Virus record (IMG/VR): IMGVR_UViG_2681813320_000006
Span: 1 to 9,891 of that record
Strand: one strand, 5' to 3'
DNA from: a virus
Lineage: Duplodnaviria; Heunggongvirae; Uroviricota; Caudoviricetes
Length of the DNA: 9,891 bases
Below the pieces are notes generated by a model. That model worked only from the letters and a program-made list of their open reading frames with translations, was not told the origin of the DNA and did no database searches. Positions within the stretch are counted from its first letter, which is position 1, and each line of letters opens with the position of its first letter. This document shows positions 1 to 9,891 of this stretch, piece after piece. The translations under genes were made by a program, and so were the position numbers.

Positions 1-7
1 AAAAAAA

Positions 8-175
8 TCAAGCATTATGCAGGCTGTTTCTTTTTATCACCGGCCACAGCAATACCACAATGCCGCAGACCAGCACTCCATCCGCCAGCACCGACATGAT
101 CCTGCTGGTGAAATCCACCATCACCACCAGAAACAGCAGGAGTGCCACAGCGGCCAGACGCAGTTTTACCGTCAC
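8..175 (-). CDS. Possible small two-helix membrane protein (about 55 aa); could be holin-like, very uncertain
   Basis: Minus-strand ORF not in the supplied track. GTG at 175-173 overlaps the TerB-like stop (GTGA) with GGAG about 8 nt upstream; stop TGA at 10-8. Translation has two hydrophobic stretches (LRLAAVALLLFLVVMV, GVLVCGIVVLLWPVI). An internal ATG at 121 is an alternative start. The G/T-rich strand could produce hydrophobic codons by chance. Confidence 0.3.
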   Translation of the reverse strand: MTVKLRLAAVALLLFLVVMVDFTSRIMSVLADGVLVCGIVVLLWPVIKRNSLHNA

Positions 176-603
176 AGGTGGTTCTCCAGTCGCAGGCCAA
201 GAACACCAGCAATCTCTTCCAGAACCTTACGCTCTTCCGGCTCAATTTCACCATCTGCTTCAGCAATGGCCACCGCCACATCCAGCACATCTTCCGCTTC
301 ACGCGTATCGTGTTTCACATCTTCAATTTCACGCAACGCTGCACGACGACCAATTTTAAAATTGGTGTCAAGCTGACCTGTGATCGTGGCACTGATGGCA
401 TTAATTTCTGACGTAAATGCGGACAATGCTGGCTGGTTACGTAATACCTGTTCGATCTTCGCTTTCTCTGAAGTCTCACATTCACCATCTGCATAGGCCA
501 CCAGGTAGGCAGCATTAATAACCGCCTGTGCCAGATCGCGTTTCTCAAACTTTTTAATTTCAGTTGCTGCTCTGCGGGTTTTCTTTTTGAAGATTCCAAA
601 CAT
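172..603 (-). CDS. TerB-like (tellurite-resistance TerB family) domain protein, about 143 aa
   Basis: Track ORF 172..675 trimmed to the first ATG (603-601), which has AGGA 8 nt upstream; the track start at 675 is GTG. Acidic helical protein with AYLVAYADGE...AVAIAEADGEIEPEE pattern typical of TerB-like domains (recalled, not searched). Overlapping ORFs in other frames look non-coding. Confidence 0.65.
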   Translation of the reverse strand: MFGIFKKKTRRAATEIKKFEKRDLAQAVINAAYLVAYADGECETSEKAKIEQVLRNQPALSAFTSEINAISATITGQLDTNFKIGRRAALREIEDVKHDTREAEDVLDVAVAIAEADGEIEPEERKVLEEIAGVLGLRLENHL

Positions 604-734
604 CGTGACGTTCCTTTGGGTGGGTGAGCCAACGCCCGGGAGCGATCTGCCCACAGAGAAAGTCACACTGACCACTCCGTAAGCTCACCCCCGAAAGGCT
701 CTGTGGTTGATATGCGCCGGGCGTGGCGCAGATA

Positions 735-759
735 CAAAAAAGGCCCGCCGAAGCGAGCC
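735..759 (-). terminator. Rho-independent terminator downstream of the tRNA cluster
   Basis: On the minus strand: 7-bp stem GGCUCGC/GCGGGCC (one G-U pair) with UUCG tetraloop (759-742), followed by a 6-T run (741-736). The pairing is better on the minus-strand transcript than on the plus. Confidence 0.65.
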
Positions 760-772
760 TGGAAAATAAGTG

Positions 773-849
773 TGGCGCGTTGTAGTGGAGTCTAACCACT
801 GACCGATTGCTTAGAAGGCAATTGCTCTGTCCGACTGAGCTAACAACGC
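773..849 (-). tRNA. tRNA-Arg (anticodon UCU), phage-encoded, with an atypical T-loop
   Basis: Reverse complement folds as a 77-nt cloverleaf: acceptor GCGTTGT/ACAACGC, D-stem GCTC/GAGC, anticodon stem ATTGC/GCAAT with loop CTTCTAA, T-stem AGTGG/CCACT, discriminator G and CCA. The T-loop is TTAGACT instead of the usual TTCGAAT. Confidence 0.7.
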
Positions 850-929
850 ATGATGCTGATAATGGACCGCCACCGGGGACTCCGAATCTCGCACAGGGTG
901 ACGTTCTTTCCTGATGAGCTAGTGGCGGT

Positions 930-1005
930 TGGTGGCCCTTGCTGGATTTGAACCAGCGACCTGGCGATTATGAGTCACTCGCTCTCACCACTGAGCTAAA
1001 GGGCC
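930..1005 (-). tRNA. tRNA with CAU anticodon, most likely tRNA-Ile2 (lysidine type); tRNA-Met not excluded
   Basis: Reverse complement GGCCCTTTAGCTCAGTGGTGAGAGCGAGTGACTCATAATCGCCAGGTCGCTGGTTCAAATCCAGCAAGGGCCACCA folds as a 76-nt cloverleaf with 7-bp acceptor stem, T-loop TTCAAAT and anticodon loop CTCATAA. It closely resembles E. coli ileX/ileY as I recall them. Confidence 0.8.
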
Positions 1006-1045
1006 GATAACATAATGATAACGTTACAGAATAAATTCAGCAATA

Positions 1046-2104
1046 TCACTCTCTCTTTCTGATTAAATTCTGTACATCCCTTGCGGTCTGCTCAAAACGT
1101 CCGGTCTCCAGCTCAACGCCAATTGCACGACGCCCCAGTGCATTCGCTGCTTTGACTGTCGAACCGGACCCCATGAAGAAATCTGCAACCAGGTCTCCCG
1201 GACGACTGCTGGCGGTAATCATTTGCCGCAACATATCTGCCGGTTTTTCACAGGGATGTTTGCCCGGATAATACTGCACAGGCTTGTGCGTCCAGACATC
1301 CGTATAAGGAACGGCTGCCGATACGGAAAAATAACGCCGCAGTGATTTGTACTCTTCCAGCAGGCTGGCATACTGCCGGTTCAGCTCACTGTATGTGCTG
1401 ACCAGTTGGTGATGTGGCTTTTCCAGTTCACCCCGCTGATGTTTCTCTTCTGCCACCCGGGCAAACAGCACCTGAAGTTTTCTGTAATCATCCTCGTTCG
1501 GTAACTGCCACTGGCTGGCACTGAACCAGTGCGACACCATGTTTTTCTTTCCTGTGGCATCCACAATCTGTTTTGCCGTTATCCCCAGAGCAGCACGCGC
1601 ATCACGAAAGTAAGAAATCAGCGGGGCCATCACATGCTGTTTCAGTGCCCTGCCCTTCGCCTCATACCCGGCATCTTTCGGGCGATATGGCCCCTGGTAA
1701 TGTTCAGCAAACAGAACGCGCTCTGTGGCAGGAAAATATGCGCGCAGACGTTCTTTATTACACCCATTCCAACGTCCGGACGGCTTCGCCCAGATGATAT
1801 GGTTAAGCACGTTGAAACGTTCACGCATCATGATCTCAATATCAGATGCCAGGCGATGCCCACAGAACAGGTAAAGGCTTCCGGCAGGTTTTAACACCCG
1901 CCAGAACTGGGCCAGACAGTGGTCCAGCCACTTAAGGTAATCTTCGTCCCCTTTCCACTGATTGTCCCAACCGTTGGGTTTCACCTTGAAGTAAGGCGGA
2001 TCGGTAACAATCAGGTCAATGGAATCATCAGGCAGGGACTGAATAAAATGCAGGCAATCAGCGTTGATTAAATCAACACTGTTTATTTTTACAGTATTTT
2101 TCAT
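1046..2104 (-). CDS. DNA methyltransferase, beta class (N6-adenine or N4-cytosine), likely an orphan phage methylase
   Basis: 352-aa ORF with ATG start. N-terminal DPPY catalytic motif (LIVTDPPYF) precedes the C-terminal AdoMet-binding motif (FFMGSGST), the order diagnostic of beta-class amino-methyltransferases. No adjacent restriction endonuclease gene is visible. Confidence 0.9.
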   Translation of the reverse strand: MKNTVKINSVDLINADCLHFIQSLPDDSIDLIVTDPPYFKVKPNGWDNQWKGDEDYLKWLDHCLAQFWRVLKPAGSLYLFCGHRLASDIEIMMRERFNVLNHIIWAKPSGRWNGCNKERLRAYFPATERVLFAEHYQGPYRPKDAGYEAKGRALKQHVMAPLISYFRDARAALGITAKQIVDATGKKNMVSHWFSASQWQLPNEDDYRKLQVLFARVAEEKHQRGELEKPHHQLVSTYSELNRQYASLLEEYKSLRRYFSVSAAVPYTDVWTHKPVQYYPGKHPCEKPADMLRQMITASSRPGDLVADFFMGSGSTVKAANALGRRAIGVELETGRFEQTARDVQNLIRKRE

Positions 2105-2254
2105 GGATCAGTAAGCGTAACTCTGGTAGGCTCACTCTGCTTTTGCGCTAAAGCAGTGGGCCGTGGTTCGCTTGTGACCAGTAAGCATGAGCGAATGGCT
2201 GGCAGGTGCTACCAACACCCACCAGCCGCCCATTTTCACAGCAGGAAACCGCCA

Positions 2255-2458
2255 TTACTGGCAGCGTCTGAATTTATTCCCGTACCCGCCGTTATCCTTC
2301 GCCAGACCCGCCAGAACTAACTGAGTCAGTATTAACTGGCACTGGGCTTCGCTTACTCCGGTAGTTCTCGTCATCATGCGTGGCGTTACCCACTTGTCAG
2401 CAGGTAAGAAATGAAGGACTGCGGCGGCGGTTTCTGTCATATCTTGCTGTTTTATCAT
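2255..2458 (-). CDS. Hypothetical small protein (about 67 aa)
   Basis: Track ORF 2255..2482 trimmed to the second ATG (2458-2456), which has AGGGA about 8 nt upstream; the first ATG at 2482 has no Shine-Dalgarno. No recognisable motif. Confidence 0.45.
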   Translation of the reverse strand: MIKQQDMTETAAAVLHFLPADKWVTPRMMTRTTGVSEAQCQLILTQLVLAGLAKDNGGYGNKFRRCQ

Positions 2459-2580
2459 GTCTTTTTCCCTTCTGGTTAACATGACATACCAATAACTCTT
2501 GTCTAAAAAGCCAGCAAGATAAAAAGTCAGTATTCACGACCACCAGCGTGTTTACTGTACTGCACCAAGTTTACAGGTAC

Positions 2581-2606
2581 AAAAAACCGCTCGACGGCGG
2601 GTTTAA
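2581..2606 (-). terminator. Possible weak rho-independent terminator (candidate tR'-like late-region terminator)
   Basis: Minus strand: 4-bp all-GC stem CCGC/GCGG (2600-2597 with 2590-2587), 6-nt loop, then a 6-T run (2586-2581). The stem is short, so the call is marginal. Confidence 0.3.
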
Positions 2607-2736
2607 GCTGTGTGGCGAAGTAACCACTCTTAACAGATTAAGATAAAATTTGCGGACCGCGGTAATTTTTTTTGCTAAATTAAAGCCATATAAAAAATAA
2701 GCCCCATAAGAAATTATTAGCATACTAAGGTTTAGC

Positions 2737-3678
2737 ATGGCTACTATTGCGCAATCAAAGAAACAAAAAAAACTTAAAATTGGTTTTTACACCAGCAGTT
2801 CTGGGACTATCCGCAGCCATTCAGTTGCTAAGCAAGCAATTGAAAATCTGTATAATACTTGCGTAACCGTTACGAATAATCATTTTGATACCATCTATAG
2901 AAATAAAAAGTTAAAAATAGCTTTTATAAATAAAGATACAAAAGCTAAATATTTCTTCGGCTACATGTCATGCTCACGAGAAGAGTATCTCCTTCCTTAT
3001 ATTGGTGATGAACACTGGAATGAGCACAACATACCACTAGATGATAAAAAATACATAGTCGAAAGAACCTATTTTTTATATTATTACGATAGTGATATTT
3101 TAATATTAACTCAAAATCATCTTGGGCCGAAAGAATCGGATTTAGCTTATCTGCTTTACAGCCAGAGTGGTAATCCTGGAAATAACTTTGCATTCCAAGC
3201 CATCTGGAAAAAAGAGAGCGTCAAAGAGCTACTTGAAACAGGAAGTACTTTGAGAAGTTGTGATATTGTCCTGGCTGCTCCCAGGAACTTTGATGCAACA
3301 AATTACCAGCTAAATAGTTCATTTTCTAAGGAACTGGTAAATATGATGGTAGGGCTGGGTGGAACACGTCTCAAGTTAAATCTAAGGGGACGTGCATCAG
3401 GGAGAGTAAAAGTCAAAGGTTATTTATCAGATCTCGTTAAGGATGGTATTAAAGAACTCCTTGAAAAAATGCCGGGAATTGTAAAAAAAGCGGCAGTAAC
3501 ACAGCCCAAAAATACCGTTGAACAAAGTCTTCTTGATCAGGTACTCATTTCAGAAAAAAACATATATACCGTTAATGGTTATGGCACTGATAGTGATGTT
3601 CTGCAAGCCATGATTTCTGCTAAAATTGATAACAATGAATACCTTAAGCAATACGATATCAGCAAAAAGAAGGTATAG
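2737..3678 (+). CDS. Soluble 313-aa protein of unknown function; candidate sensor/activator of a two-gene phage-exclusion module (RexA-like by architecture)
   Basis: ATG at 2737 with TAAGG 6 nt upstream; stop TAG at 3676-3678. Strongly AT-rich (roughly one-third G+C by eye) with AAA/AAT/ATA-rich codon use, unlike the flanks. No Walker A, HNH or DPPY-type motifs seen. Same size class, gene order and N-terminal GFY motif as lambda RexA as I recall it. Confidence 0.8.
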   Translation: MATIAQSKKQKKLKIGFYTSSSGTIRSHSVAKQAIENLYNTCVTVTNNHFDTIYRNKKLKIAFINKDTKAKYFFGYMSCSREEYLLPYIGDEHWNEHNIPLDDKKYIVERTYFLYYYDSDILILTQNHLGPKESDLAYLLYSQSGNPGNNFAFQAIWKKESVKELLETGSTLRSCDIVLAAPRNFDATNYQLNSSFSKELVNMMVGLGGTRLKLNLRGRASGRVKVKGYLSDLVKDGIKELLEKMPGIVKKAAVTQPKNTVEQSLLDQVLISEKNIYTVNGYGTDSDVLQAMISAKIDNNEYLKQYDISKKKV

Positions 3679-3681
3679 GAT

Positions 3682-4125
3682 ATGTTATTGAAATACTTAA
3701 GAAACCTGATTGTAAGTGTTTTTTGCACCTTGTTCCTACTGAGGTATATCCCTCAGATGGGGCATGCTGACATACTTACAGCCTCCGGGGTTATTTCAAC
3801 TGTATCCGGTATTTTATTTGGTTTTATTTTAGCCACAATATCAATTTTTAGTGCTGCTAGCGAAAACTCAAATGGAATAATAAAAGCATTAAAAAACAAC
3901 AACATACTTCAAGTTATTATTGTAAATCTATTAACCGCAGGTGCATCTTTAATTACGGCATGCGTTATTGCTTTGATAGCAATGTTTGCCAATGAAAAGA
4001 CATTGTTACATGGAGAAAAAATAGAATTTATTTTAATTATCGAATCGTTATCTCTTCTTATCATTTCAGTAATAACTTTTGCCTTTACATGGAGAAAAGT
4101 AAACTGGATACTCCCCCACATTTAA
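3682..4125 (+). CDS. 147-aa integral membrane protein with four predicted transmembrane helices; candidate effector (RexB-like)
   Basis: ATG at 3682 with AAGAAGG 8 nt upstream, starting 4 bp after the upstream stop. Four hydrophobic segments (about residues 8-25, 30-58, 75-103, 114-138). The LFLLRYIP motif after helix 1 resembles lambda RexB LLFRHYIP as I recall it. Stop TAA at 4123-4125. Confidence 0.85.
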   Translation: MLLKYLRNLIVSVFCTLFLLRYIPQMGHADILTASGVISTVSGILFGFILATISIFSAASENSNGIIKALKNNNILQVIIVNLLTAGASLITACVIALIAMFANEKTLLHGEKIEFILIIESLSLLIISVITFAFTWRKVNWILPHI

Positions 4126-4148
4126 AAAGGGCAGAAATGCCCTTTTTT
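4124..4148. terminator. Bidirectional rho-independent terminator shared by the convergent cassette and the Q gene
   Basis: AAAAA-GGGCA-GAAA-TGCCC-TTTTTT: 5-bp stem (4129-4133 with 4138-4142), GAAA tetraloop, A-run on one side and T-run on the other, so it reads as hairpin plus U-tract on either strand. It sits between the cassette stop (4125) and the Q stop (4149). Confidence 0.6.
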
Positions 4149-4511
4149 CTACTCCATTTCAAGTTTAACATCCAGCATTGAAAGGCATCCATCAATAAAC
4201 CCTTCAGCCATCTGTATCTCTATACGTATCAATTTCTCATCTTTTTTGCGAGCTCTTGCAAGCTTTCTTTTCGAGATGCCATACAGGTAATGGGCCACAA
4301 TCAAAGAATGCTCGTACGGTTTTCGCTTTTTAAGAAGAGCAAGACAACCTTCAATAATTAATGCATCACTATCTGAACAAGCCTGACGTGTTTTGCTTGT
4401 ATAGGGAAGAAGCCCTTTAAACCCAGCAGCTATAGGAGAATAGTCTACTCCTGAACTATCACTCGCCGCCCATGCTCCCCAACGATCCAGAACCATTTGA
4501 ATATCACGCAT
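4149..4511 (-). CDS. Late-gene antitermination protein Q (short Q family, QuuD-like), about 120 aa
   Basis: Track ORF 4149..4526 trimmed to ATG at 4511-4509 (the track start is TTG), with GGAG about 8 nt upstream. N-terminus MRDIQMVLDRWGAWAA matches the E. coli DLP12 QuuD N-terminus as I recall it. Position after the replication module fits a Q gene. Confidence 0.75.
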   Translation of the reverse strand: MRDIQMVLDRWGAWAASDSSGVDYSPIAAGFKGLLPYTSKTRQACSDSDALIIEGCLALLKKRKPYEHSLIVAHYLYGISKRKLARARKKDEKLIRIEIQMAEGFIDGCLSMLDVKLEME

Positions 4512-4528
4512 CAACTTTCTCCACAAAA

Positions 4529-5524
4529 TCAGGCCAGCACGCCAATTGCCAGCGCGCGATCGATAAAACGAAATATCAGCTCCAGCTGGGAACCATACTT
4601 CTCTTCAAATGCCACGGTATCCGCATGCAGTTCGTCATGGTGTTTTCTGCACAAAGGCAACACAAAAAGGTCATGCGCTTTTGTACCCATACCACCCTGA
4701 CCATGACCAATCAGGTGATGAGGATCGTCGGCTGGCTTACCACAACATGCACACGGCTGCGTCTTAACCCAGCGCGTGTACTTTTCATTAACCCAGCGAC
4801 GACGTTTTGGGCGTAACATAAAAGACTCCGGCGACTCCGGATCCACTTTCAGCGCCAGCACCTTTTTCGCTTTATCCTGGATGATGCTGGTGGCAGGAAC
4901 CGAAGGCACAAGGTCACTTTCCCGGGTGACAGACGGCACAACAGGTTTCGGTAATCTCAGCGCCTTACGGGCTGCGCTTTCAGGTAAGGCATCCGCCAGG
5001 TCATTACGAATCAGCCACCAGCACAGTTCCGGCATTGTCACGGCATGGTTATCATCAAAACCGAGATCCCGACGGACTACAGACAACACCCAGCGGGCAC
5101 AGTTATCCGTTGCCATTGATTCCAGCCGTTCCGTGAACTGATCGCGCAGCTGGTTATCGCAGTGCCAGCACAGACGGATTGCGCCCGGAGCGTGTCGCAT
5201 TGTGGTCATGTTCTCGCTGTGCCAGTCGGAATGAGGCCACTGGCAGCCTTTTTCACGAAGTAACCAGCTTTCAAGACATTCCACTCCACCAGCACGACGA
5301 ATAACTGCCTCATTGCGGAACACGGCCCGAACGGCAGGATCATCCGCCAGCGGTTGTGATGCTGCCGGAACGGCACCGCTGGCGAAAGATGAATAACGTT
5401 CCGGCTCAGGCTCCAGCAGGACACGCCCCTGCATAAACAGGGGCATCAGCTCTGAACCGGGCCTGAACAATACAATCCCCATTCGCGGGGCAATTTCAGG
5501 AGTCAACAATGCTCTCACGGTCAC
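4529..5524 (-). CDS. DUF968-like prophage protein (YdfU-like) with a C-terminal Cys/His zinc-binding, HNH-like motif
   Basis: 331-aa ORF. C-terminus has CACCGKP...HHLIGHGQGGMGTKAHD...PLCRKHHDELH, a Cys/His cluster of the kind seen in DUF968/YdfU-type proteins. The track start at 5524 is GTG; a GTG at 5518 with GAGG upstream or an ATG at 5485 are alternatives, so the start is uncertain. Confidence 0.7.
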   Translation of the reverse strand: MTVRALLTPEIAPRMGIVLFRPGSELMPLFMQGRVLLEPEPERYSSFASGAVPAASQPLADDPAVRAVFRNEAVIRRAGGVECLESWLLREKGCQWPHSDWHSENMTTMRHAPGAIRLCWHCDNQLRDQFTERLESMATDNCARWVLSVVRRDLGFDDNHAVTMPELCWWLIRNDLADALPESAARKALRLPKPVVPSVTRESDLVPSVPATSIIQDKAKKVLALKVDPESPESFMLRPKRRRWVNEKYTRWVKTQPCACCGKPADDPHHLIGHGQGGMGTKAHDLFVLPLCRKHHDELHADTVAFEEKYGSQLELIFRFIDRALAIGVLA

Positions 5525-5569
5525 CTCAGCGAACGATATTGCATGAACACAGGAGAAAAAATTCAGCCA

Positions 5570-5827
5570 TCACGCAGTAAACTCCTTCACCAGAGTTTCA
5601 AACTGGCTTACCTTGCCTTCCAGTTCCGCCACGCAATCCACCAGCTCATCCACCGCCTTTTGTGTGCGGTGTTTTGCCTGCAGCAGATCACGAAGCGCCG
5701 GAGTAAGCTGCTTGCGGAGCGTATCCTTTGCCACGCTCATTTTTTCCATCTGTTCAGCACAACGAAGCATCTCCTGCGCCTGGCGACGAAGTTGTTCCGG
5801 TGAAACAGTGGCTGTTCTGTTATTCAA
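5570..5827 (-). CDS. Hypothetical small coiled-coil protein (85 aa)
   Basis: TTG start at 5827 overlaps the helicase stop (TTGA) with GGAG about 8 nt upstream, suggesting translational coupling. Charged helical sequence (EQLRRQAQEMLRCAEQMEKM...), no identifiable domain. Internal ATGs are alternative starts. Confidence 0.45.
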   Translation of the reverse strand: MNNRTATVSPEQLRRQAQEMLRCAEQMEKMSVAKDTLRKQLTPALRDLLQAKHRTQKAVDELVDCVAELEGKVSQFETLVKEFTA

Positions 5828-7224
5828 AATAAACGCTCCGCTTTACTGCCCGACATGCGGTTATTGCTGTATCTGCGCGGATTGCCCGGCGTCATGGGTG
5901 TGGAAAGCCCCCGGGCACTTTCCTGGTCCACAGGCAGAAAATGCCCGTTATGAAAACGTCGGTAAATGGTCCCGAGTGTGCCATTACGCTGTTTCGTGAT
6001 GTTGATTTCTGCTATGCCTCTCGCCTGTGTATCCGGGTTATACACCTCATCCCTGTAAAGCATCAGAATGATGTCGGCATCAGCCTCTATTTCCCCGGAG
6101 TTTTTCAGGTCTGAGTTCATGGGACGTTTATTGGGTCTGGATTCCACGCCGCGGGAGAGCTGGCTCAGAGCAATCAGCGGGAAACCGCCGGATTTTGCCA
6201 GGCTTTTAAGTCCCTTTGAGATTTCCCCCACCGCAAGGTCGTGACGCCCCGTGCTGCGGGTTTTAATCAGACCGAGGTAATCGACCACCACCAGCGCCGT
6301 TTCCGGATGCTTCATCCGGTGGTACCTCGTGGTTGCACATATCTCATCAATGGTCAGATTTGCCTGGTCCACCATCCAGATATTACGCCCCGTCATTCGT
6401 CCCACACCCTGTGAGAAACGTGCCCAGTCTTCGTCTTCAAAACGGGCAACAGACTTAAGACGGGATACCGGCATTCCCCCTGCTGCAGACACCATACGTT
6501 CACCAATCTGGATGTTCGCCATCTCCATGGTGAACAGAAGCACGCCATGCCCCTGCTCAGTCACCTTGTCGATGATGTCCAGCGCCAGTTCGGTTTTCCC
6601 CATCGAAGGACGAGCCGCAATGAATACCAGGTCGCCTGGCTCCATCCCCCCTGTTTTTGCGTCCAGTTCATCAATACCGGTCATCAGCGCCCTGGATTTC
6701 TCCAGTCCCTGATTCCGGCATTCAACACGGCCCACCACTTCCGGAAGGACATCATCAATGTGAACCGGCTGAATGACGCCCTTTCCGGTCGACAGTGAGG
6801 CCATCATGTTCTGCGCATCCTTCAGGGCATCTTCTGCCGCTTCGCAGGTATGTGCATCACGTAAATTCTGTAATGCTTCGGTCAGTGTTTTTTCTGCATC
6901 GCGCAGTACGGCATTTCGCCGCAGCGCTGCAACATAGTGCTCCAGTGAAGACTTCACCCAGGTTTTGCGCCCGGTGTCAGTAATCACCGGGGCAAGTTCC
7001 GGCATCTCATTGCACAGCAGCACGGGGTCAATGACGCCGGATACGCGGGCCTGTCTGCAAATCCCCGCGTAAATATCCCGGTACTGACGCACGAAAAATA
7101 CATCCGCCGGAAGCGTGGCCAGAATATCCATCACTTCCGGATCAGCCCCACGCAGAAAAAACGCGCCAATCACCGCACCTTCCAGGTCATCGTTACGCCA
7201 TGCCGGGTTGTTCTGGCTGGTCAT
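5824..7224 (-). CDS. Replicative DNA helicase, DnaB family (phage-encoded)
   Basis: 466-aa ORF with ATG at 7224 overlapping the upstream stop (ATGA). Walker A (ARPSMGKT), Walker B-like VVVDYLGL and DnaB-like downstream motifs (SGGFPLIALSQLSR). Size and N-terminal domain fit DnaB-type helicases such as P22 gp12. Confidence 0.92.
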   Translation of the reverse strand: MTSQNNPAWRNDDLEGAVIGAFFLRGADPEVMDILATLPADVFFVRQYRDIYAGICRQARVSGVIDPVLLCNEMPELAPVITDTGRKTWVKSSLEHYVAALRRNAVLRDAEKTLTEALQNLRDAHTCEAAEDALKDAQNMMASLSTGKGVIQPVHIDDVLPEVVGRVECRNQGLEKSRALMTGIDELDAKTGGMEPGDLVFIAARPSMGKTELALDIIDKVTEQGHGVLLFTMEMANIQIGERMVSAAGGMPVSRLKSVARFEDEDWARFSQGVGRMTGRNIWMVDQANLTIDEICATTRYHRMKHPETALVVVDYLGLIKTRSTGRHDLAVGEISKGLKSLAKSGGFPLIALSQLSRGVESRPNKRPMNSDLKNSGEIEADADIILMLYRDEVYNPDTQARGIAEINITKQRNGTLGTIYRRFHNGHFLPVDQESARGLSTPMTPGNPRRYSNNRMSGSKAERLF

Positions 7225-8099
7225 GCGGCAACACCTCCGATACGAGAACGGTAGCTGGGCCAGTTAAACGACAACCAGTTGCGCCCGCCATCGGTGATCC
7301 TGTCGGCAATCCGGGGACTGATGAACGCCCACAATTCTTCCGGTGAAAGGTTGCTGATCAAGATAGTTGGCAAAATACCCTCATACCGGGCATTGATAAT
7401 TTCCTGCAAAATGGCCATTTCAGCCGCACTGCCAAACTGAACGCCGACTTCGTCGATGATCAGCAAATCCAGTGACGCATAATGCTCAATGACGTCATCC
7501 GCTGTTTTTTCACTGTCATTCCGCCAGCAGTTTTTCACAGCACGGGTAAGGCGCATCACGTCGGTGATCTCCACACTGGCCAGATAGTTACGGATGATGT
7601 GTTTTGCCATTGATACCGCCAGATGATTTTTCCCGGTACCGCAACTGCCGGTCATAACAAGACTGGTACCGTTCTCCAGCATATCTGGCCAGTTCTCCAC
7701 ATAGCGGCGACAGGCCGCAAGATTTCTGGCTGCGTCAGGATTAACCTCCAGATAATTATCAAACTCGCAGTCCCGAAAACGCAGAGCAATTCCGGCGTTA
7801 TCAGTCAGTTCTTCCGCCTTGAGGGACGACAGCTCCATGGTCAAATCGTTGGCCTCAGCTATCAAGCAGTCAGGGCAGCATGAAATTTTTTCTCTGTCCT
7901 CGCCATTACGATCGCTCCACACCAGAATATGTGTGTGGTATTCGCCATGTTTTTCGCAACACCCGCGCCCTTCACGCATCCAGCAGGAACGATAAGGCCA
8001 TGGCTTTTCGCCCTTCTGAGCAAATGCAATCTCTGCCCGTAACTCATCCATCCGCGCCTGTAGTCTTGTTTGTTGTTCACGCAGGTTAAACGTCATCAT
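7221..8099 (-). CDS. DnaC/IstB-like AAA+ helicase loader with an N-terminal Cys-rich, probably zinc-binding, extension
   Basis: Walker A MTGSCGTGKNHLA and Walker B LLIIDEVG. Track start 8108 is GTG; the ATG at 8099 has GAGGTGA 5 nt upstream and is preferred. N-terminal region has CC...H.H...CCPDC cysteine/histidine clusters. Confidence 0.88.
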   Translation of the reverse strand: MMTFNLREQQTRLQARMDELRAEIAFAQKGEKPWPYRSCWMREGRGCCEKHGEYHTHILVWSDRNGEDREKISCCPDCLIAEANDLTMELSSLKAEELTDNAGIALRFRDCEFDNYLEVNPDAARNLAACRRYVENWPDMLENGTSLVMTGSCGTGKNHLAVSMAKHIIRNYLASVEITDVMRLTRAVKNCWRNDSEKTADDVIEHYASLDLLIIDEVGVQFGSAAEMAILQEIINARYEGILPTILISNLSPEELWAFISPRIADRITDGGRNWLSFNWPSYRSRIGGVAA

Positions 8100-8109
8100 C
8101 TCTGTCACC

Positions 8110-9018
8110 TCAGAATGTCAATTTGTCACTGGATTTACCGAATTTGTCAGACATGGCTCCCAGGCCAGCCAGGACATCGACCTGTCGCTGTCGCCCACCT
8201 CCGGGAGCAGATGGCTGTTGCCATGATTCGTCAAAGTGTCGATCGGGGCCAAAGAACGTCGACGCCTGCTTCACGAACTGAGTGCCGGTATTTCCTGAGA
8301 CACGCACCCAGGCGGCATAGCGTTTCACACCGTTGAGCATGGTTTCGGGTGTCACACCTTCCCTGATTCGGGCTTTCCAGGCTTTGAAGGCTGCTGACTT
8401 GGAATTACCACCAGCACGTTTGGGATATTCCTGCCAGGCCTGTTCAAATTCCGGTGAATATTCCTGTCGGGCAGAACGTGCTGGTGCAGACGCGTCAGCG
8501 GATGCGCCAATAGTGTTTTTACTCTCTGTAGTATTCTCTGAAGTAATCTCTGTTGTATTCTCTGTAAGATCGAAATTGGTTTTCCCTTCTCCGCGGCGAG
8601 GGGTTTCCCGTGTCCGCGGTGAAGGCTTTCCCTCCTCCGCGAAATTGGGTTTTACAGTTTCCCGAAAACGGGTTTCCCCATTTCGGGAAAACTGATTGTT
8701 TTCATTGATAATTTCATTAAGGCGCTCACAATCTATACGGTAGAACATTTTGTGCTCAAGACGCTTGTTGGTTTCAACCAAAATGCCTCTGGACACAAGA
8801 TGCTTACGCGCTACAGCCTGTTGTTCAAATGTAAGTCCTGTTTCGTGTTGTATCTCTTCACGCGTTTTATGTACGCCTTCCGCTGCATGTGCTTTATCCT
8901 GCCAGTAAAAAATCTGACCAAAGAAAATAACAGCGTGCGGACTTCCCATGTATTTAACGAGCCCAGGGTAATAAGCAACCGGATGTCCAAAATCGAGCAG
9001 AAGATCAGACGGACGCAT
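8110..9018 (-). CDS. Replication initiator (lambda O-like, origin-binding) with a repeat-encoded linker
   Basis: Track ORF 8110..9024 trimmed to ATG 9018 (GGAGGTG 5 nt upstream; the track start is GTG). The central protein region (TENTTEITSENTTESKNT, PRTRETPRRGEGKT) is encoded by DNA direct repeats, as in lambda O where the ori iterons lie inside the gene. It sits immediately upstream of the helicase-loader and helicase genes. Confidence 0.75.
   Translation of the reverse strand: MRPSDLLLDFGHPVAYYPGLVKYMGSPHAVIFFGQIFYWQDKAHAAEGVHKTREEIQHETGLTFEQQAVARKHLVSRGILVETNKRLEHKMFYRIDCERLNEIINENNQFSRNGETRFRETVKPNFAEEGKPSPRTRETPRRGEGKTNFDLTENTTEITSENTTESKNTIGASADASAPARSARQEYSPEFEQAWQEYPKRAGGNSKSAAFKAWKARIREGVTPETMLNGVKRYAAWVRVSGNTGTQFVKQASTFFGPDRHFDESWQQPSAPGGGRQRQVDVLAGLGAMSDKFGKSSDKLTF
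8523..8695. repeat. Iteron-like direct repeats inside the O-like gene (candidate replication origin) followed by an AT-rich stretch
   Basis: Four 12-bp tandem units containing TCTCTG (8523-8570). Five TTTCCC-containing units at 8581, 8603, 8627, 8658, 8673 (about 22-24 bp apart) with internal dyads such as CCCGAAAACGGG and TTTCGGGAAA. AT-rich segment at about 8690-8725. Confidence 0.6.
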
Positions 9019-9238
9019 AGCCACCTCCCAGGCGTTTAAACATTTTTCCGGACTGAAACGCCACCAGCGGATAACTCAGGGTATGAGTACGCCCCTGCAC
9101 CTGGCAGACAACCTTCTGACTTTCTGCATTGACCAGGCAAACCCGCAGAACGTGGCCGTTGCTGGTGGTGAACCACTGCCCCACACGGGGGCAACGGTTG
9201 TATCGGTGATACAGGGAATTAACGATGTAGCGGATCAT
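9005..9238 (-). CDS. Hypothetical small protein (77 aa)
   Basis: ATG at 9238 with GGAGGTG 5 nt upstream, overlapping the upstream stop (ATGA). Its 3' end overlaps the O-like start by 14 nt. No recognisable domain. Confidence 0.55.
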   Translation of the reverse strand: MIRYIVNSLYHRYNRCPRVGQWFTTSNGHVLRVCLVNAESQKVVCQVQGRTHTLSYPLVAFQSGKMFKRLGGGYASV

Positions 9239-9429
9239 GGACGCACCTCCGCCGTAGTTACGTATTTAACTGGGCTACCTTTCATTGAGATGGTTTCACA
9301 CATCCCTGCCGCTTTCAGTTCCGCCGTTTTTCTGGATTTATAGCGACGATGCCAGACAGATACATCCGTGCGAACTGATACATCGTTTCTGTATTCCGTA
9401 GTGGAGATGATGATTTCGTAACTAATCAT
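9235..9429 (-). CDS. Hypothetical small protein (64 aa)
   Basis: ATG at 9429 with AAGGAGGTG 5 nt upstream, overlapping the upstream stop (ATGA). Part of a translationally coupled chain of minus-strand genes. Confidence 0.5.
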   Translation of the reverse strand: MISYEIIISTTEYRNDVSVRTDVSVWHRRYKSRKTAELKAAGMCETISMKGSPVKYVTTAEVRP

Positions 9430-9731
9430 GGGTGCACCTCCTTGTCAGAACCATTCAGCCTGTAATCAACAAGTGCAGCACCAAAAACTGCATCACCTAC
9501 ACGGTCGTACAGTTTGCCAGCCAGCGGAGATTCAACGGCCTTAAGCATTGGATAAAGCTGGCTTGTCCAGATTTGGTGGATTTCTCGCAAATGCAGGTAT
9601 ACGCCTCTGGCGTTTTGTGCGACAGATGGCATATCAGCCGCACCAACTCCTGATAAGCACCTCTCCATCTGGTTAAAGGCATTGATGTATGCTTCTTTGA
9701 ACCGGGCAGCACGTTTACCCGTGAAACCCAT
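9426..9731 (-). CDS. C-terminal portion of a Rha-like (Phage_pRha-type) regulatory protein; N-terminal part appears interrupted or truncated
   Basis: The reading frame stays open upstream of ATG 9731 to a TAA at 9851-9849 and encodes ...SEYTDASGRKLPCYQITRDGFAFLAMGFTGKRAARFKEAYINAFNQME, which resembles the conserved core of Rha-family proteins as I recall it. No ATG/GTG/TTG start lies between that stop and 9731, and 9731 has no Shine-Dalgarno. Confidence 0.45.
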   Translation of the reverse strand: MGFTGKRAARFKEAYINAFNQMERCLSGVGAADMPSVAQNARGVYLHLREIHQIWTSQLYPMLKAVESPLAGKLYDRVGDAVFGAALVDYRLNGSDKEVHP

Positions 9732-9891
9732 AGCAAGAAACGCAAAACCGTCGCGGGTGATTTGGTAACAAGGGAGTTTGCGGCCTGATGCGTCGGTGTA
9801 TTCACTTAACAGTAAGCGTGCAGCAAGAACCGTATTGACGGGGATGTGTTATTCAGTCGGCAGTGCTACGCGCCAGGGGAGCAGTTCGCCG

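Follow-up and report, generated by a model that had tools for sequence, protein, structure and literature searches.

A candidate replication origin of 23-bp iterons and a widespread 12-mer array inside the initiator gene of a lambdoid Stx-type prophage

This study concerns a stretch of 9,891 nucleotides from a tailed phage (IMG/VR record IMGVR_UViG_2681813320_000006, positions 1 to 9,891; hereafter the window, meaning this whole stretch) and, within it, two neighboring arrays of direct repeats that a preliminary description made from the sequence alone had proposed as a replication origin. The window corresponds to the early-right region of a lambdoid prophage of the Shiga toxin (Stx) type with its phage genes on the minus strand, and both arrays lie inside the gene for an O-like replication initiator (8110..9018, minus strand). 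According to its open reading frame (ORF) and translation, this gene encodes 302 amino acids (aa) from an ATG at 9018; the ORF finder had begun at a GTG at 9024, 2 codons upstream, and homologues of the initiator begin with MRPSD.

The longer repeats form an array of five abutting, dyad-symmetric 23-bp units on the minus strand (8571..8685), delimited by Tandem Repeats Finder (TRF), register reading, and dyad scores. On the coding strand, these iterons read CGAAATGGGGAAACCCGTTTTCG (r1, 8685-8663), GGAAACTGTAAAACCCAATTTCG (r2, 8662-8640), CGGAGGAGGGAAAGCCTTCACCG (r3, 8639-8617), CGGACACGGGAAACCCCTCGCCG (r4, 8616-8594), and CGGAGAAGGGAAAACCAATTTCG (r5, 8593-8571). TRF reports a period of 23 at 8581-8641 with a score of 80, and the core GGGAAANCC has 5 matches where 0.41 are expected (0 of 200 shuffles), 4 of them within the array and in 23-bp register. 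Each unit is an imperfect palindrome of 10+3+10 nucleotides whose arms match at 8, 6, 7, 7, and 5 of 10 positions, and as single-stranded DNA (ssDNA) the array is strongly self-complementary and folds far better than its shuffles (z about -3.6). The five copies and their dyads had been described correctly, but the period, given as 22-24 bp, is exactly 23, and the copies abut exactly.

Beyond a 5-nt spacer, ATCTT (8566..8570, minus strand), the last iteron is followed by four copies of a 12-mer, ACAGAGAWTACW (8518..8565, minus strand; TRF and register reading), which encode TENTTEITSENTTESK. The copies read ACAGAGAATACA (8565-8554), ACAGAGATTACT (8553-8542), TCAGAGAATACT (8541-8530), and ACAGAGAGTAAA (8529-8518) on the coding strand. 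TRF, a kind of check that the preliminary description had itself proposed, thereby recovers a period-12 array (8523-8566, 3.7 copies, score 67) besides the period-23 one, and CAGAGANTAC with at most one mismatch occurs 7 times against 1.44 expected (0/200 shuffles reach 7), with 4 of these matches phased at 12 bp. Four 12-bp repeats had been claimed at this place along with a repetitive linker peptide encoded by the repeats, ENTTEITSENTTESKNT, and both are present, the repeats well above chance. Unlike the 23-mers, the 12-mers have no dyad symmetry. Their tract is AT-rich (GC content 0.30-0.35) and unstructured as ssDNA (-1.3 and -1.5 kcal/mol), though no more so than shuffles, and its length changes by whole 12-mer units, with 4 or 5 copies among near-identical phages: L017, L067, and L038 from IMG/VR have five 12-mers instead of four and an initiator of 306 aa instead of 302 aa. 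The sole GATC of the candidate origin (8568-8571) lies at the junction of iterons and 12-mers (TTCGATCTTACAGAG), made up of the iteron's last G and the spacer, and the junction TTCGATC(C/T)TACAGAGA (TTCG-ATC(Y)T-ACAGAGA) recurs in Klebsiella and several IMG/VR lineages. A comparison of the 12-mer by eye with the DnaA box, DnaA-trios, IHF and Fis sites, the -10 element, and primase trinucleotides gave nothing convincing.

At the protein level, the repeats fall between two domains of an AlphaFold2 model built on 36 homologues. The N-terminal part (aa 1-109; 8692..9018, minus strand) is predicted by AlphaFold2 and Foldseek to be a winged-helix DNA-binding domain and consists of helices and a beta-hairpin wing (E80-87, E90-95) modeled with a predicted local distance difference test (pLDDT) score of 77-90 over most of the domain. 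Foldseek matched it to winged-helix proteins only, including the plasmid RepA N-domains 5kbj, 4pql, and 4pt7 (E >= 0.02, best template-modeling score 0.67), and a hidden Markov model search of PDB sequences gave marginal winged-helix matches only. The model thus conforms to a generic winged-helix fold, and the weak Foldseek E-values allow no subfamily name. The linker that follows (aa 110-184) is predicted to be disordered (AlphaFold2, pLDDT below 50), and gene nt 334-501 with both repeat families corresponds to aa 112-167 within it. Thereafter, AlphaFold2 predicts a C-terminal domain with a helical core (aa 185-252) and a tail (8113..8466, minus strand), presumably the partner of the helicase loader.

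Downstream of the initiator gene on the same strand lie the genes for a DnaC-like AAA+ helicase loader (7221..8108; Pfam IstB_IS21 at 2.5e-14 and Bac_DnaA at 6.7e-6, phrog_50 "DnaC-like helicase loader" at 1e-88) and a DnaB-like replicative helicase (5824..7224; Pfam DnaB_C at 8.7e-74, DnaB N-domain at 1e-5). The window-type C-domain recurs in phiP27, BcepIL02, and DC1, with a DnaC-like gene after it each time, while other C-domain types are directly followed by a gene for a DnaB-like helicase. That the C-domain type tracks a DnaC-like neighbor is in keeping with the model for lambda, where the N-domain recognizes the origin while the C-domain brings in the loader. Gene L17 of phiP27 (AJ298298; locus L010) has the window's C-domain at 91% DNA identity with a different N-domain (Pfam HTH_36 in close homologues), and its repeats differ as well, being GACCCTTCAGAATCTG-like; where the ACAGAGA 12-mers would be expected, it has AAAACATGATCCGCAAG in two to three copies. 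A published account gives "P27" a lambda-like O gene with six iterons (PMC7466680), which has no obvious fit to the AJ298298 record.

In profile searches, the initiator matches phrog_270 "replication initiation protein" at 1e-65 and its N-terminal part phrog_9773 "replication initiation O-like" at 5e-32, and scans of the whole protein and of its halves against Pfam and NCBIfam gave no match. The name "O-like" used in the preliminary description therefore holds for the architecture and the PHROG label, but not for membership in Pfam Phage_rep_O or any other Pfam or NCBIfam model. The N-domain family comprises 3640 clusters at E <= 1e-3. Single-linkage BLAST clustering groups the N-domain types of the window, mEp460, and P0063, and a comparison of the family profile with the mEp460 N-domain was not significant; we regard homology of the three types as tentative. 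In hundreds of database entries, the initiator is a "partial" protein, 114-161 aa long and terminating within the repeats (P0001-P0004), which suggests that short-read assemblies break at the candidate origin, perhaps due to co-resident prophages having the tract and the C-domain in common.

Repeats absent from related initiator genes, together with replication shown to start elsewhere, had been named beforehand as the observation that would count against an origin at this place. Phages of Burkholderia, Klebsiella, Acinetobacter, Pasteurella, and Aggregatibacter encode relatives of the N-domain with 49-61% identity, 80 IMG/VR contigs have relatives with 59-100% identity, and every sampled relative carries repeats: 2-5 copies at strict 23-bp phase just after the N-domain and, at once thereafter, short repeats. 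The last iteron ends near gene nt 448 throughout, and exactly at this position in five of the lineages compared. Across the initiator family, the dyad score has a mean of 5.0 versus 2.45 +/- 0.21 for shuffled copies, and the family-wide iteron logo is CGRA-N5-GAAA-N6-TYCG. At the variable positions of the iterons, identity is 0.56 within arrays and 0.33 between lineages, a difference that 0/5000 label permutations reach. Such homogeneity within arrays combined with divergence between lineages, i.e., concerted evolution, is as expected for sites that co-evolve with their own binding protein, and the 23-mers thus behave as lineage-specific cognate iterons that would be bound by the initiator of the respective lineage.

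The 12-mers follow a different pattern. The same tract, 97.5% identical over 40 bp, occurs after quite different iterons (e.g., TCCATCGGGTCAAAATG) in the initiators of mEp460, HannyBb, and PhiR42_1 as well as in Pantoea phage AH07, all with N- and C-domains other than those of the window. A scan of IMG/VR for ACAGAGANTACNACAGAGA yielded at least 120 loci. Among the matches listed, 106 lie in a long ORF in the T-E frame, and for 91 of 97 distinct loci the best period within the 120 nt upstream is 22-24 bp (23 bp in 74); the mean self-match of this upstream region is 0.545 versus 0.342 in control regions, whose period distribution is diffuse, and 65 loci versus 0 controls reach a self-match of >=0.5. 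Eight further matches in this list fall outside long ORFs and comprise 4 unrelated sequences and 4 frameshifted or split initiator genes. One IMG/VR locus (L172, 1-160) has an in-frame TGA stop just before the first 12-mer and after a run of 23-bp repeats, and ends 92 nt upstream; here the initiator may have been divided at the tract into one gene for each domain, or the stop may stem from a sequencing error.

A second scan for the same motif in one genome per species again gave at least 120 matches, with those listed stemming from Proteobacteria, Bacillus, Clostridium, Lachnospiraceae, Caldanaerobacter, Chloroflexi, cyanobacteria, Fibrobacteres, Desulfuromonas, and CPR Gracilibacteria. Among the matches listed here, 79 lie in long ORFs, the upstream period is 21-24 bp in 68 of these 79, and the examples inspected by eye have the same architecture. 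Blastn of the 48-nt tract against GenBank phages returned 89 records, and the annotated matches shown are all initiator-type genes (O-like, DnaD-like, primosomal) or carry generic labels ("transcriptional regulator", "hypothetical protein"); the gene of Staphylococcus phage 37, for example, has its own iterons, three 12-mers, and a DnaC-like neighbor. Within E. coli, the tract is found in about 1500 of 5426 complete genomes, including BL21, and the combination of the window's N-domain and iterons in only 101 of them. The BL21(RP) copy of this 12-mer tract lies in a gene (231321-232286; L213) for a HannyBb-type initiator of 321 aa, annotated as "hypothetical protein", within a cryptic Qin/Rac-like prophage with hokD, rem, and ydaT-like neighbors.

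This distribution bears on the question of whether the initiator also binds the 12-mers as double-stranded DNA, which would make them a second class of sites and hence true iterons; the preliminary description had implied as much by counting them as a second iteron-like family. The 12-mers are indeed tandem, phased, and adjoin the 23-mers, and all their carriers are winged-helix initiators with a common "..Q..YW" helix, so that a conserved part of the protein could recognize a conserved site. However, the motif stays unchanged between E. coli and Staphylococcus, Clostridium, or cyanobacteria, although no recognizable resemblance is left between their iterons and N-domain sequences; the iterons co-vary with lineage and the 12-mers do not; and the lack of dyad symmetry sets them apart from the 23-mers. 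We therefore consider true iterons an unlikely explanation, and the notion of an initiator-specific family fails in that the same motif follows unrelated iterons, accompanies other N-domains and unrelated C-domains, and occurs in distant phyla. The constancy of the 12-mers would imply recognition by something common to all these replicons, either a conserved surface of the initiators acting on ssDNA or a universal component of the host replisome.

A more radical alternative is that the repeats have no role in cis at all and only encode a flexible, T/E/N-rich linker born of slippage, with the origin located elsewhere. The region does encode a predicted disordered linker, T-E-x-T is the translation of most 12-mer copies, and the variation between 4 and 5 copies among near-identical phages marks the tract as slippage-prone. 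However, the 23-bp period runs through three frames: When successive copies are translated in all three frames, the 23-mer gives no peptide repeat because 23 is not a multiple of 3 and the copies fall in different frames. For the 12-mers, constraint at synonymous sites was assessed with gene sets picked by protein similarity and not by DNA motif. In 14 initiator genes (11 of them sampled through the N-domain), glutamate in the tract is encoded by GAG in 40/40 codons, compared to 142 GAG and 165 GAA codons elsewhere, and threonine by ACA or ACT with the exception of one lineage. In Burkholderia phages, the GC content at third codon positions is 0.25 in the tract versus 0.85 in the rest of the gene, and the GC minimum of the whole initiator gene falls on the 12-mers. 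A second, independent sample of 75 distinct loci was obtained via the Bacillus-type N-domain: in 62 of them, iterons with a period of mostly 22 bp precede at least 2 copies of CAGAGA spaced by 11-14 nt, and the other 13 have degenerate versions of the tract. Glutamate codons in the Bacillus-type tract number 145 GAG to 8 GAA versus 388 to 978 elsewhere, and the synonymous sites of the 12-mers are frozen against host codon bias.

Departures from the usual reading frame likewise speak against a linker as the sole function. At least one 12-mer copy lies in another reading frame in 24 of the 62 Bacillus-type loci (e.g., PENTQRVTTE or TREYTENT), and the Pasteurellaceae variant ACACTAGATTAC has a 13-bp period and is translated in two frames, as TLDY and then NTRL. 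Moreover, the Bacillus amyloliquefaciens plasmid pBSG3 (NC_014104.1, 8.4 kb; L415) carries at 720-845 three to four 22-23-bp repeats (CCTACAGGGAAA core) followed by three ACAGAGATTACT 12-mers, an array that lies outside any initiator ORF, upstream of an unrelated rep gene, with no start-codon ORF crossing it in the T-E frame. Seven near-identical Bacillus plasmids have an array of this type, which could be a captured phage origin, perhaps as a decoy titrating the phage initiator, or a remnant. Given also that the layout in the window matches that of a proven origin, lambda, we judge a mere linker to be highly improbable, and the 12-mers are very probably a functional element at the level of DNA.

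One function at the DNA level that would not involve initiation directly is that of a recombination joint, i.e., a "linker sequence" of modular phage evolution for the sake of which the tract would mainly be kept. The tract is the exact junction in reciprocal hybrids: L053 and P0055 combine the window's N-domain and iterons with a mEp460-type (lambda-O-C-like) C-domain, and P0068 combines a mEp460-type N-domain with the window's C-domain. Furthermore, among the IMG/VR matches listed the tract is joined to at least 8 N-domain and at least 24 C-domain clusters, and the 40 bp of 97.5% identity mentioned above connect otherwise unrelated genes. Yet it is unlikely that second-order selection for recombination would keep a motif of 12 nt constant from phylum to phylum and in the face of codon bias, and roles in recombination and initiation are not mutually exclusive. 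We thus doubt that the joint is the main reason for conservation and instead propose that the 12-mers, as a sequence-specific element common to a very large cross-phylum group of origins, may double as a joint for the exchange of N- and C-domains, while the 23-mers would serve as lineage-specific recognition sites.

The preliminary description had likened the locus to lambda ori, and the presence of repeats inside an O-like initiator gene with the anatomy of a lambda-type origin is borne out by near-coincident offsets in the gene and by the location in the disordered linker. Lambda iterons span gene nt 349-433 and its AT-rich tract 434-480, compared to 334-448 for the iterons and 454-501 for the second element in the window; on the coding strand, the 12-mer tract has a GC content of 0.32 and a purine content of 0.66, and the lambda tract of 0.26 and 0.67, respectively. 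Both genes share the order of DNA-binding domain, iterons, and second element, with the repeats encoding the inter-domain linker, and lambda ori as well as its six-iteron version in the lambdoid Stx phage 933W has 4-6 dyad-symmetric iterons of approximately 18-23 bp in the middle of the initiator gene (PMC7466680). An A-rich, purine-skewed tract after the iterons, a two-domain initiator, and a helicase-loading gene downstream are further features in common. At least four dyad repeats, their position in the linker, and an A+T-rich, strand-asymmetric tract after the last iteron, as expected of a lambda-type origin, are all found here.

Several differences are nevertheless apparent. The window initiator is outside Phage_rep_O and has no detectable homology to lambda O; its iterons are 23 bp long, abutting, and strictly phased, whereas the 18-bp sites of lambda start 20, 24, and 23 bp apart; the element after the iterons is an array of a specific 12-mer instead of a plain AT-rich run; and a DnaC-like loader is encoded together with a phage DnaB-like helicase, while lambda P acts on host DnaB. 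The likeness drawn to lambda ori thus stands for layout, offsets, and linker but fails for the protein family and for the AT-rich stretch, which had been sought on the opposite side of the iterons.

This stretch (8695..8725, minus strand) encodes RLNEIINENN at the end of the N-domain's last helix (aa 97-113). It had been described as following the repeats, and an AT-rich stretch indeed exists, with a GC content of 0.25-0.35 over 8680-8740; in gene orientation, however, it lies upstream of the iterons, and what follows them is the 12-mer tract. That the origin is located here but uses 8695-8725 as its unwinding element, with the 12-mers doing something else, would be in line with the lowest GC content of the gene (0.25) and with AT-richness also in the Klebsiella relative. 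Against this, the stretch encodes a confidently folded helix, its position is opposite to that of the lambda AT-rich tract relative to the iterons, and its AT-richness is lost in GC-rich relatives (the equivalent stretch has a GC content of 0.60-0.68 in Burkholderia phages), where the gene's GC minimum is the 12-mer tract. We consider this alternative rather unlikely, and 8695-8725 is probably not the conserved unwinding element.

AT-richness also had to be rejected as a conserved property of the 12-mers themselves: Compared to its gene, the tract shows no AT-richness in low-GC relatives, and with a mean GC content of 0.40 it is more GC-rich than the gene in 29 of 52 Bacillus-type loci. Plasmid and chromosomal origins offer a further comparison. 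At RK2 oriV, all four 13-mers are needed, point mutations in them block melting, and TrfA binds one strand sequence-specifically; the 13-mers of RK2 oriV and of oriC lie next to the sites of the initiator, each of them is needed, and TrfA or DnaA, respectively, binds them sequence-specifically as ssDNA (PMC4980987). As at RK2 oriV (with TrfA) and oriC, the window has iterons for a winged-helix initiator beside a short array of 12-13-mers, with the four 12-mers starting 5 nt from the last iteron. In contrast to RK2 oriV, it has no DnaA boxes and the element lies inside a coding sequence. Unlike the 13-mers of plasmids and oriC, which are replicon-specific, the 12-mers are of unrelated sequence, recur across phyla, and are not always AT-rich relative to their surroundings. 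By analogy, the RK2 13-mers are the best working model for the 12-mers, which could be recognized as ssDNA by a conserved part of the initiator or by a universal replisome component.

Origins of Staphylococcus aureus pathogenicity islands (SaPIs) resemble the window in that a winged-helix domain recognizes iterons adjoining the region to be melted, but their iterons are 5-6 nt long, lie on both sides of an AT-rich region downstream of rep, and serve an initiator that is itself a helicase (PMC9371898). This leaves as a further comparison the phages of Firmicutes, with Staphylococcus phage 37 and Bacillus phages annotated as "DnaD-like" carrying the same 12-mer tract. Firmicute initiators of the replisome-organizer or DnaD-like type (SPP1 G38P with oriL, the rep genes of lactococcal phages) have the origin inside or next to their gene and combine an N-terminal DNA-binding domain with a variable C-domain that contacts the loader or the helicase. 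The window initiator matches none of their Pfam families, and for these systems we came across no paper that describes the ACAGAGAWTACW array or a phasing of 23 bp.

From the anatomy, its significance and conservation, the concerted evolution of the iterons, the DNA-level constraint on the 12-mers, and the domain structure computed here, we infer binding, melting, helicase loading, and origin activity as follows. Dimers of the N-terminal winged-helix domain would bind the five abutting 23-bp dyad iterons and form an O-some-like complex. Strand opening and engagement of ssDNA by the initiator or the helicase would take place at or beside the ACAGAGAWTACW 12-mer array, i.e., at the position of the lambda AT-rich region, and the C-domain of the initiator would recruit the DnaC-like loader and the DnaB-like helicase of the phage. 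That the repeats are the origin of an Eru7-type Stx prophage within its own initiator gene (window 8518-8685), with the whole of this mechanism, seems probable to us. To a specific role of the 12-mers in strand opening or ssDNA engagement we give somewhat less than an even chance.

A number of observations weigh against this interpretation. We found no published experiment on origin activity, binding, or melting in this phage or its relatives. The initiator lies outside all curated O-family models (Pfam PF04492 Phage_rep_O), its N-domain has no Pfam match even at E <= 10, and the N-domain profile shows no significant similarity to lambda O (hhalign against the lambda O N-domain: probability 0.3%). 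Neither DnaA boxes nor GATC clusters, promoters, or terminators single out the region: The DnaA box TTATNCACA with at most one mismatch is absent from 7702-9891 and at chance level across the window, and GATC clustering as well as a promoter and terminator scan around the candidate origin gave chance levels. The lowest GC content of the gene (0.25) is found upstream of the iterons and not in the 12-mer tract, and since the tract is GC-richer than the gene in 29 of 52 loci from low-GC hosts, easy melting alone cannot explain its conservation. Finally, a further origin of the phage could lie outside the window.

An origin that consists of iterons and a second element inside the initiator gene is of a well-known kind, and functionally we take the locus to be a lambda-type origin. 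The preliminary description was right in outline and erred in the nature of the 12-mers, the choice of the AT-rich stretch, and the family membership of the protein. While the origin itself was to be expected, the conserved 12-mer element was not. Full-text literature searches with the 12-mer strings, the peptide, and iteron or replisome-organizer terms gave no description of the tract, with most subscription journals outside the coverage, and with the same limit neither an Eru7 origin nor strict 23-bp abutting dyad iterons or a cross-phylum ACAGAGAWTACW array were found described. We give even odds to the view that the array is a sequence-specific origin element not described before, conserved at the level of DNA from phylum to phylum, always right after 21-24-bp dyad iterons in the linker-coding part of winged-helix initiator genes and with interchangeable iterons, N-domains, and C-domains around it. 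Its carriers include phages of Staphylococcus, Bacillus, Acinetobacter, and Klebsiella as well as of many uncultured lineages. Should the tract be a functional element of origins, it would be a universal marker and a one-line signature for origins in thousands of prophages, provide a handle on how winged-helix initiators open DNA, and explain why initiator domains recombine exactly at this place.

For Stx phages, the assignment of the window to a replication type is of particular relevance because phage DNA replication drives Shiga toxin expression (PMC7466680). The initiator gene is 95-98% identical to "replication protein O" genes of approximately 20 Stx1a, Stx2a, and Stx2d phages and, over 91% of its length, 97.8% identical to that of Stx2_14040 (LC567818.1), the Eru7 type phage. 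The Eru7 type is defined by the replication region of this phage together with a gene for a Rha-domain protein near cI (PMC8951638), and a C-terminal fragment of Rha is found at 9426-9731 with 29.0 bits, slightly under the Pfam cut-off of 29.9. Judged by sequence, the window would thus belong to the Eru7 replication type, which is apparently the most widespread among Stx phages in Europe (PMC8951638). The replication proteins and the replication mode of Eru phages are stated there as not known at all, and two papers on Eru phages do not mention an Eru7 origin or use the word "iteron". With a precise candidate origin as well as an initiator, a loader, and a helicase in hand, the question of Eru phage replication becomes directly testable.

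Some features of the window are apart from the candidate origin. A DUF6731 protein of 313 aa (2737-3678) and a protein of 147 aa without family match (3682-4125) are encoded on the plus strand, opposite to all phage neighbors, and neither was matched in PADLOC; the gene pair at 2737-4125 looks like an inserted "moron", possibly a defense or exclusion cassette. The two minus-strand genes at 1046-2104 and 4529-5524 between them encode an N6/N4 DNA methyltransferase (Type II MTase model at 2e-154), for which no restriction partner was seen within the window, and a DUF968/HNH-like protein. An Rfam scan of the window found two tRNAs only, both away from the candidate origin. These are minus-strand genes for tRNA-Arg (anticodon tct) and tRNA-Met at 773-849 and 930-1005, and Stx phages often have tRNA genes directly upstream of stx (PMC8951638).

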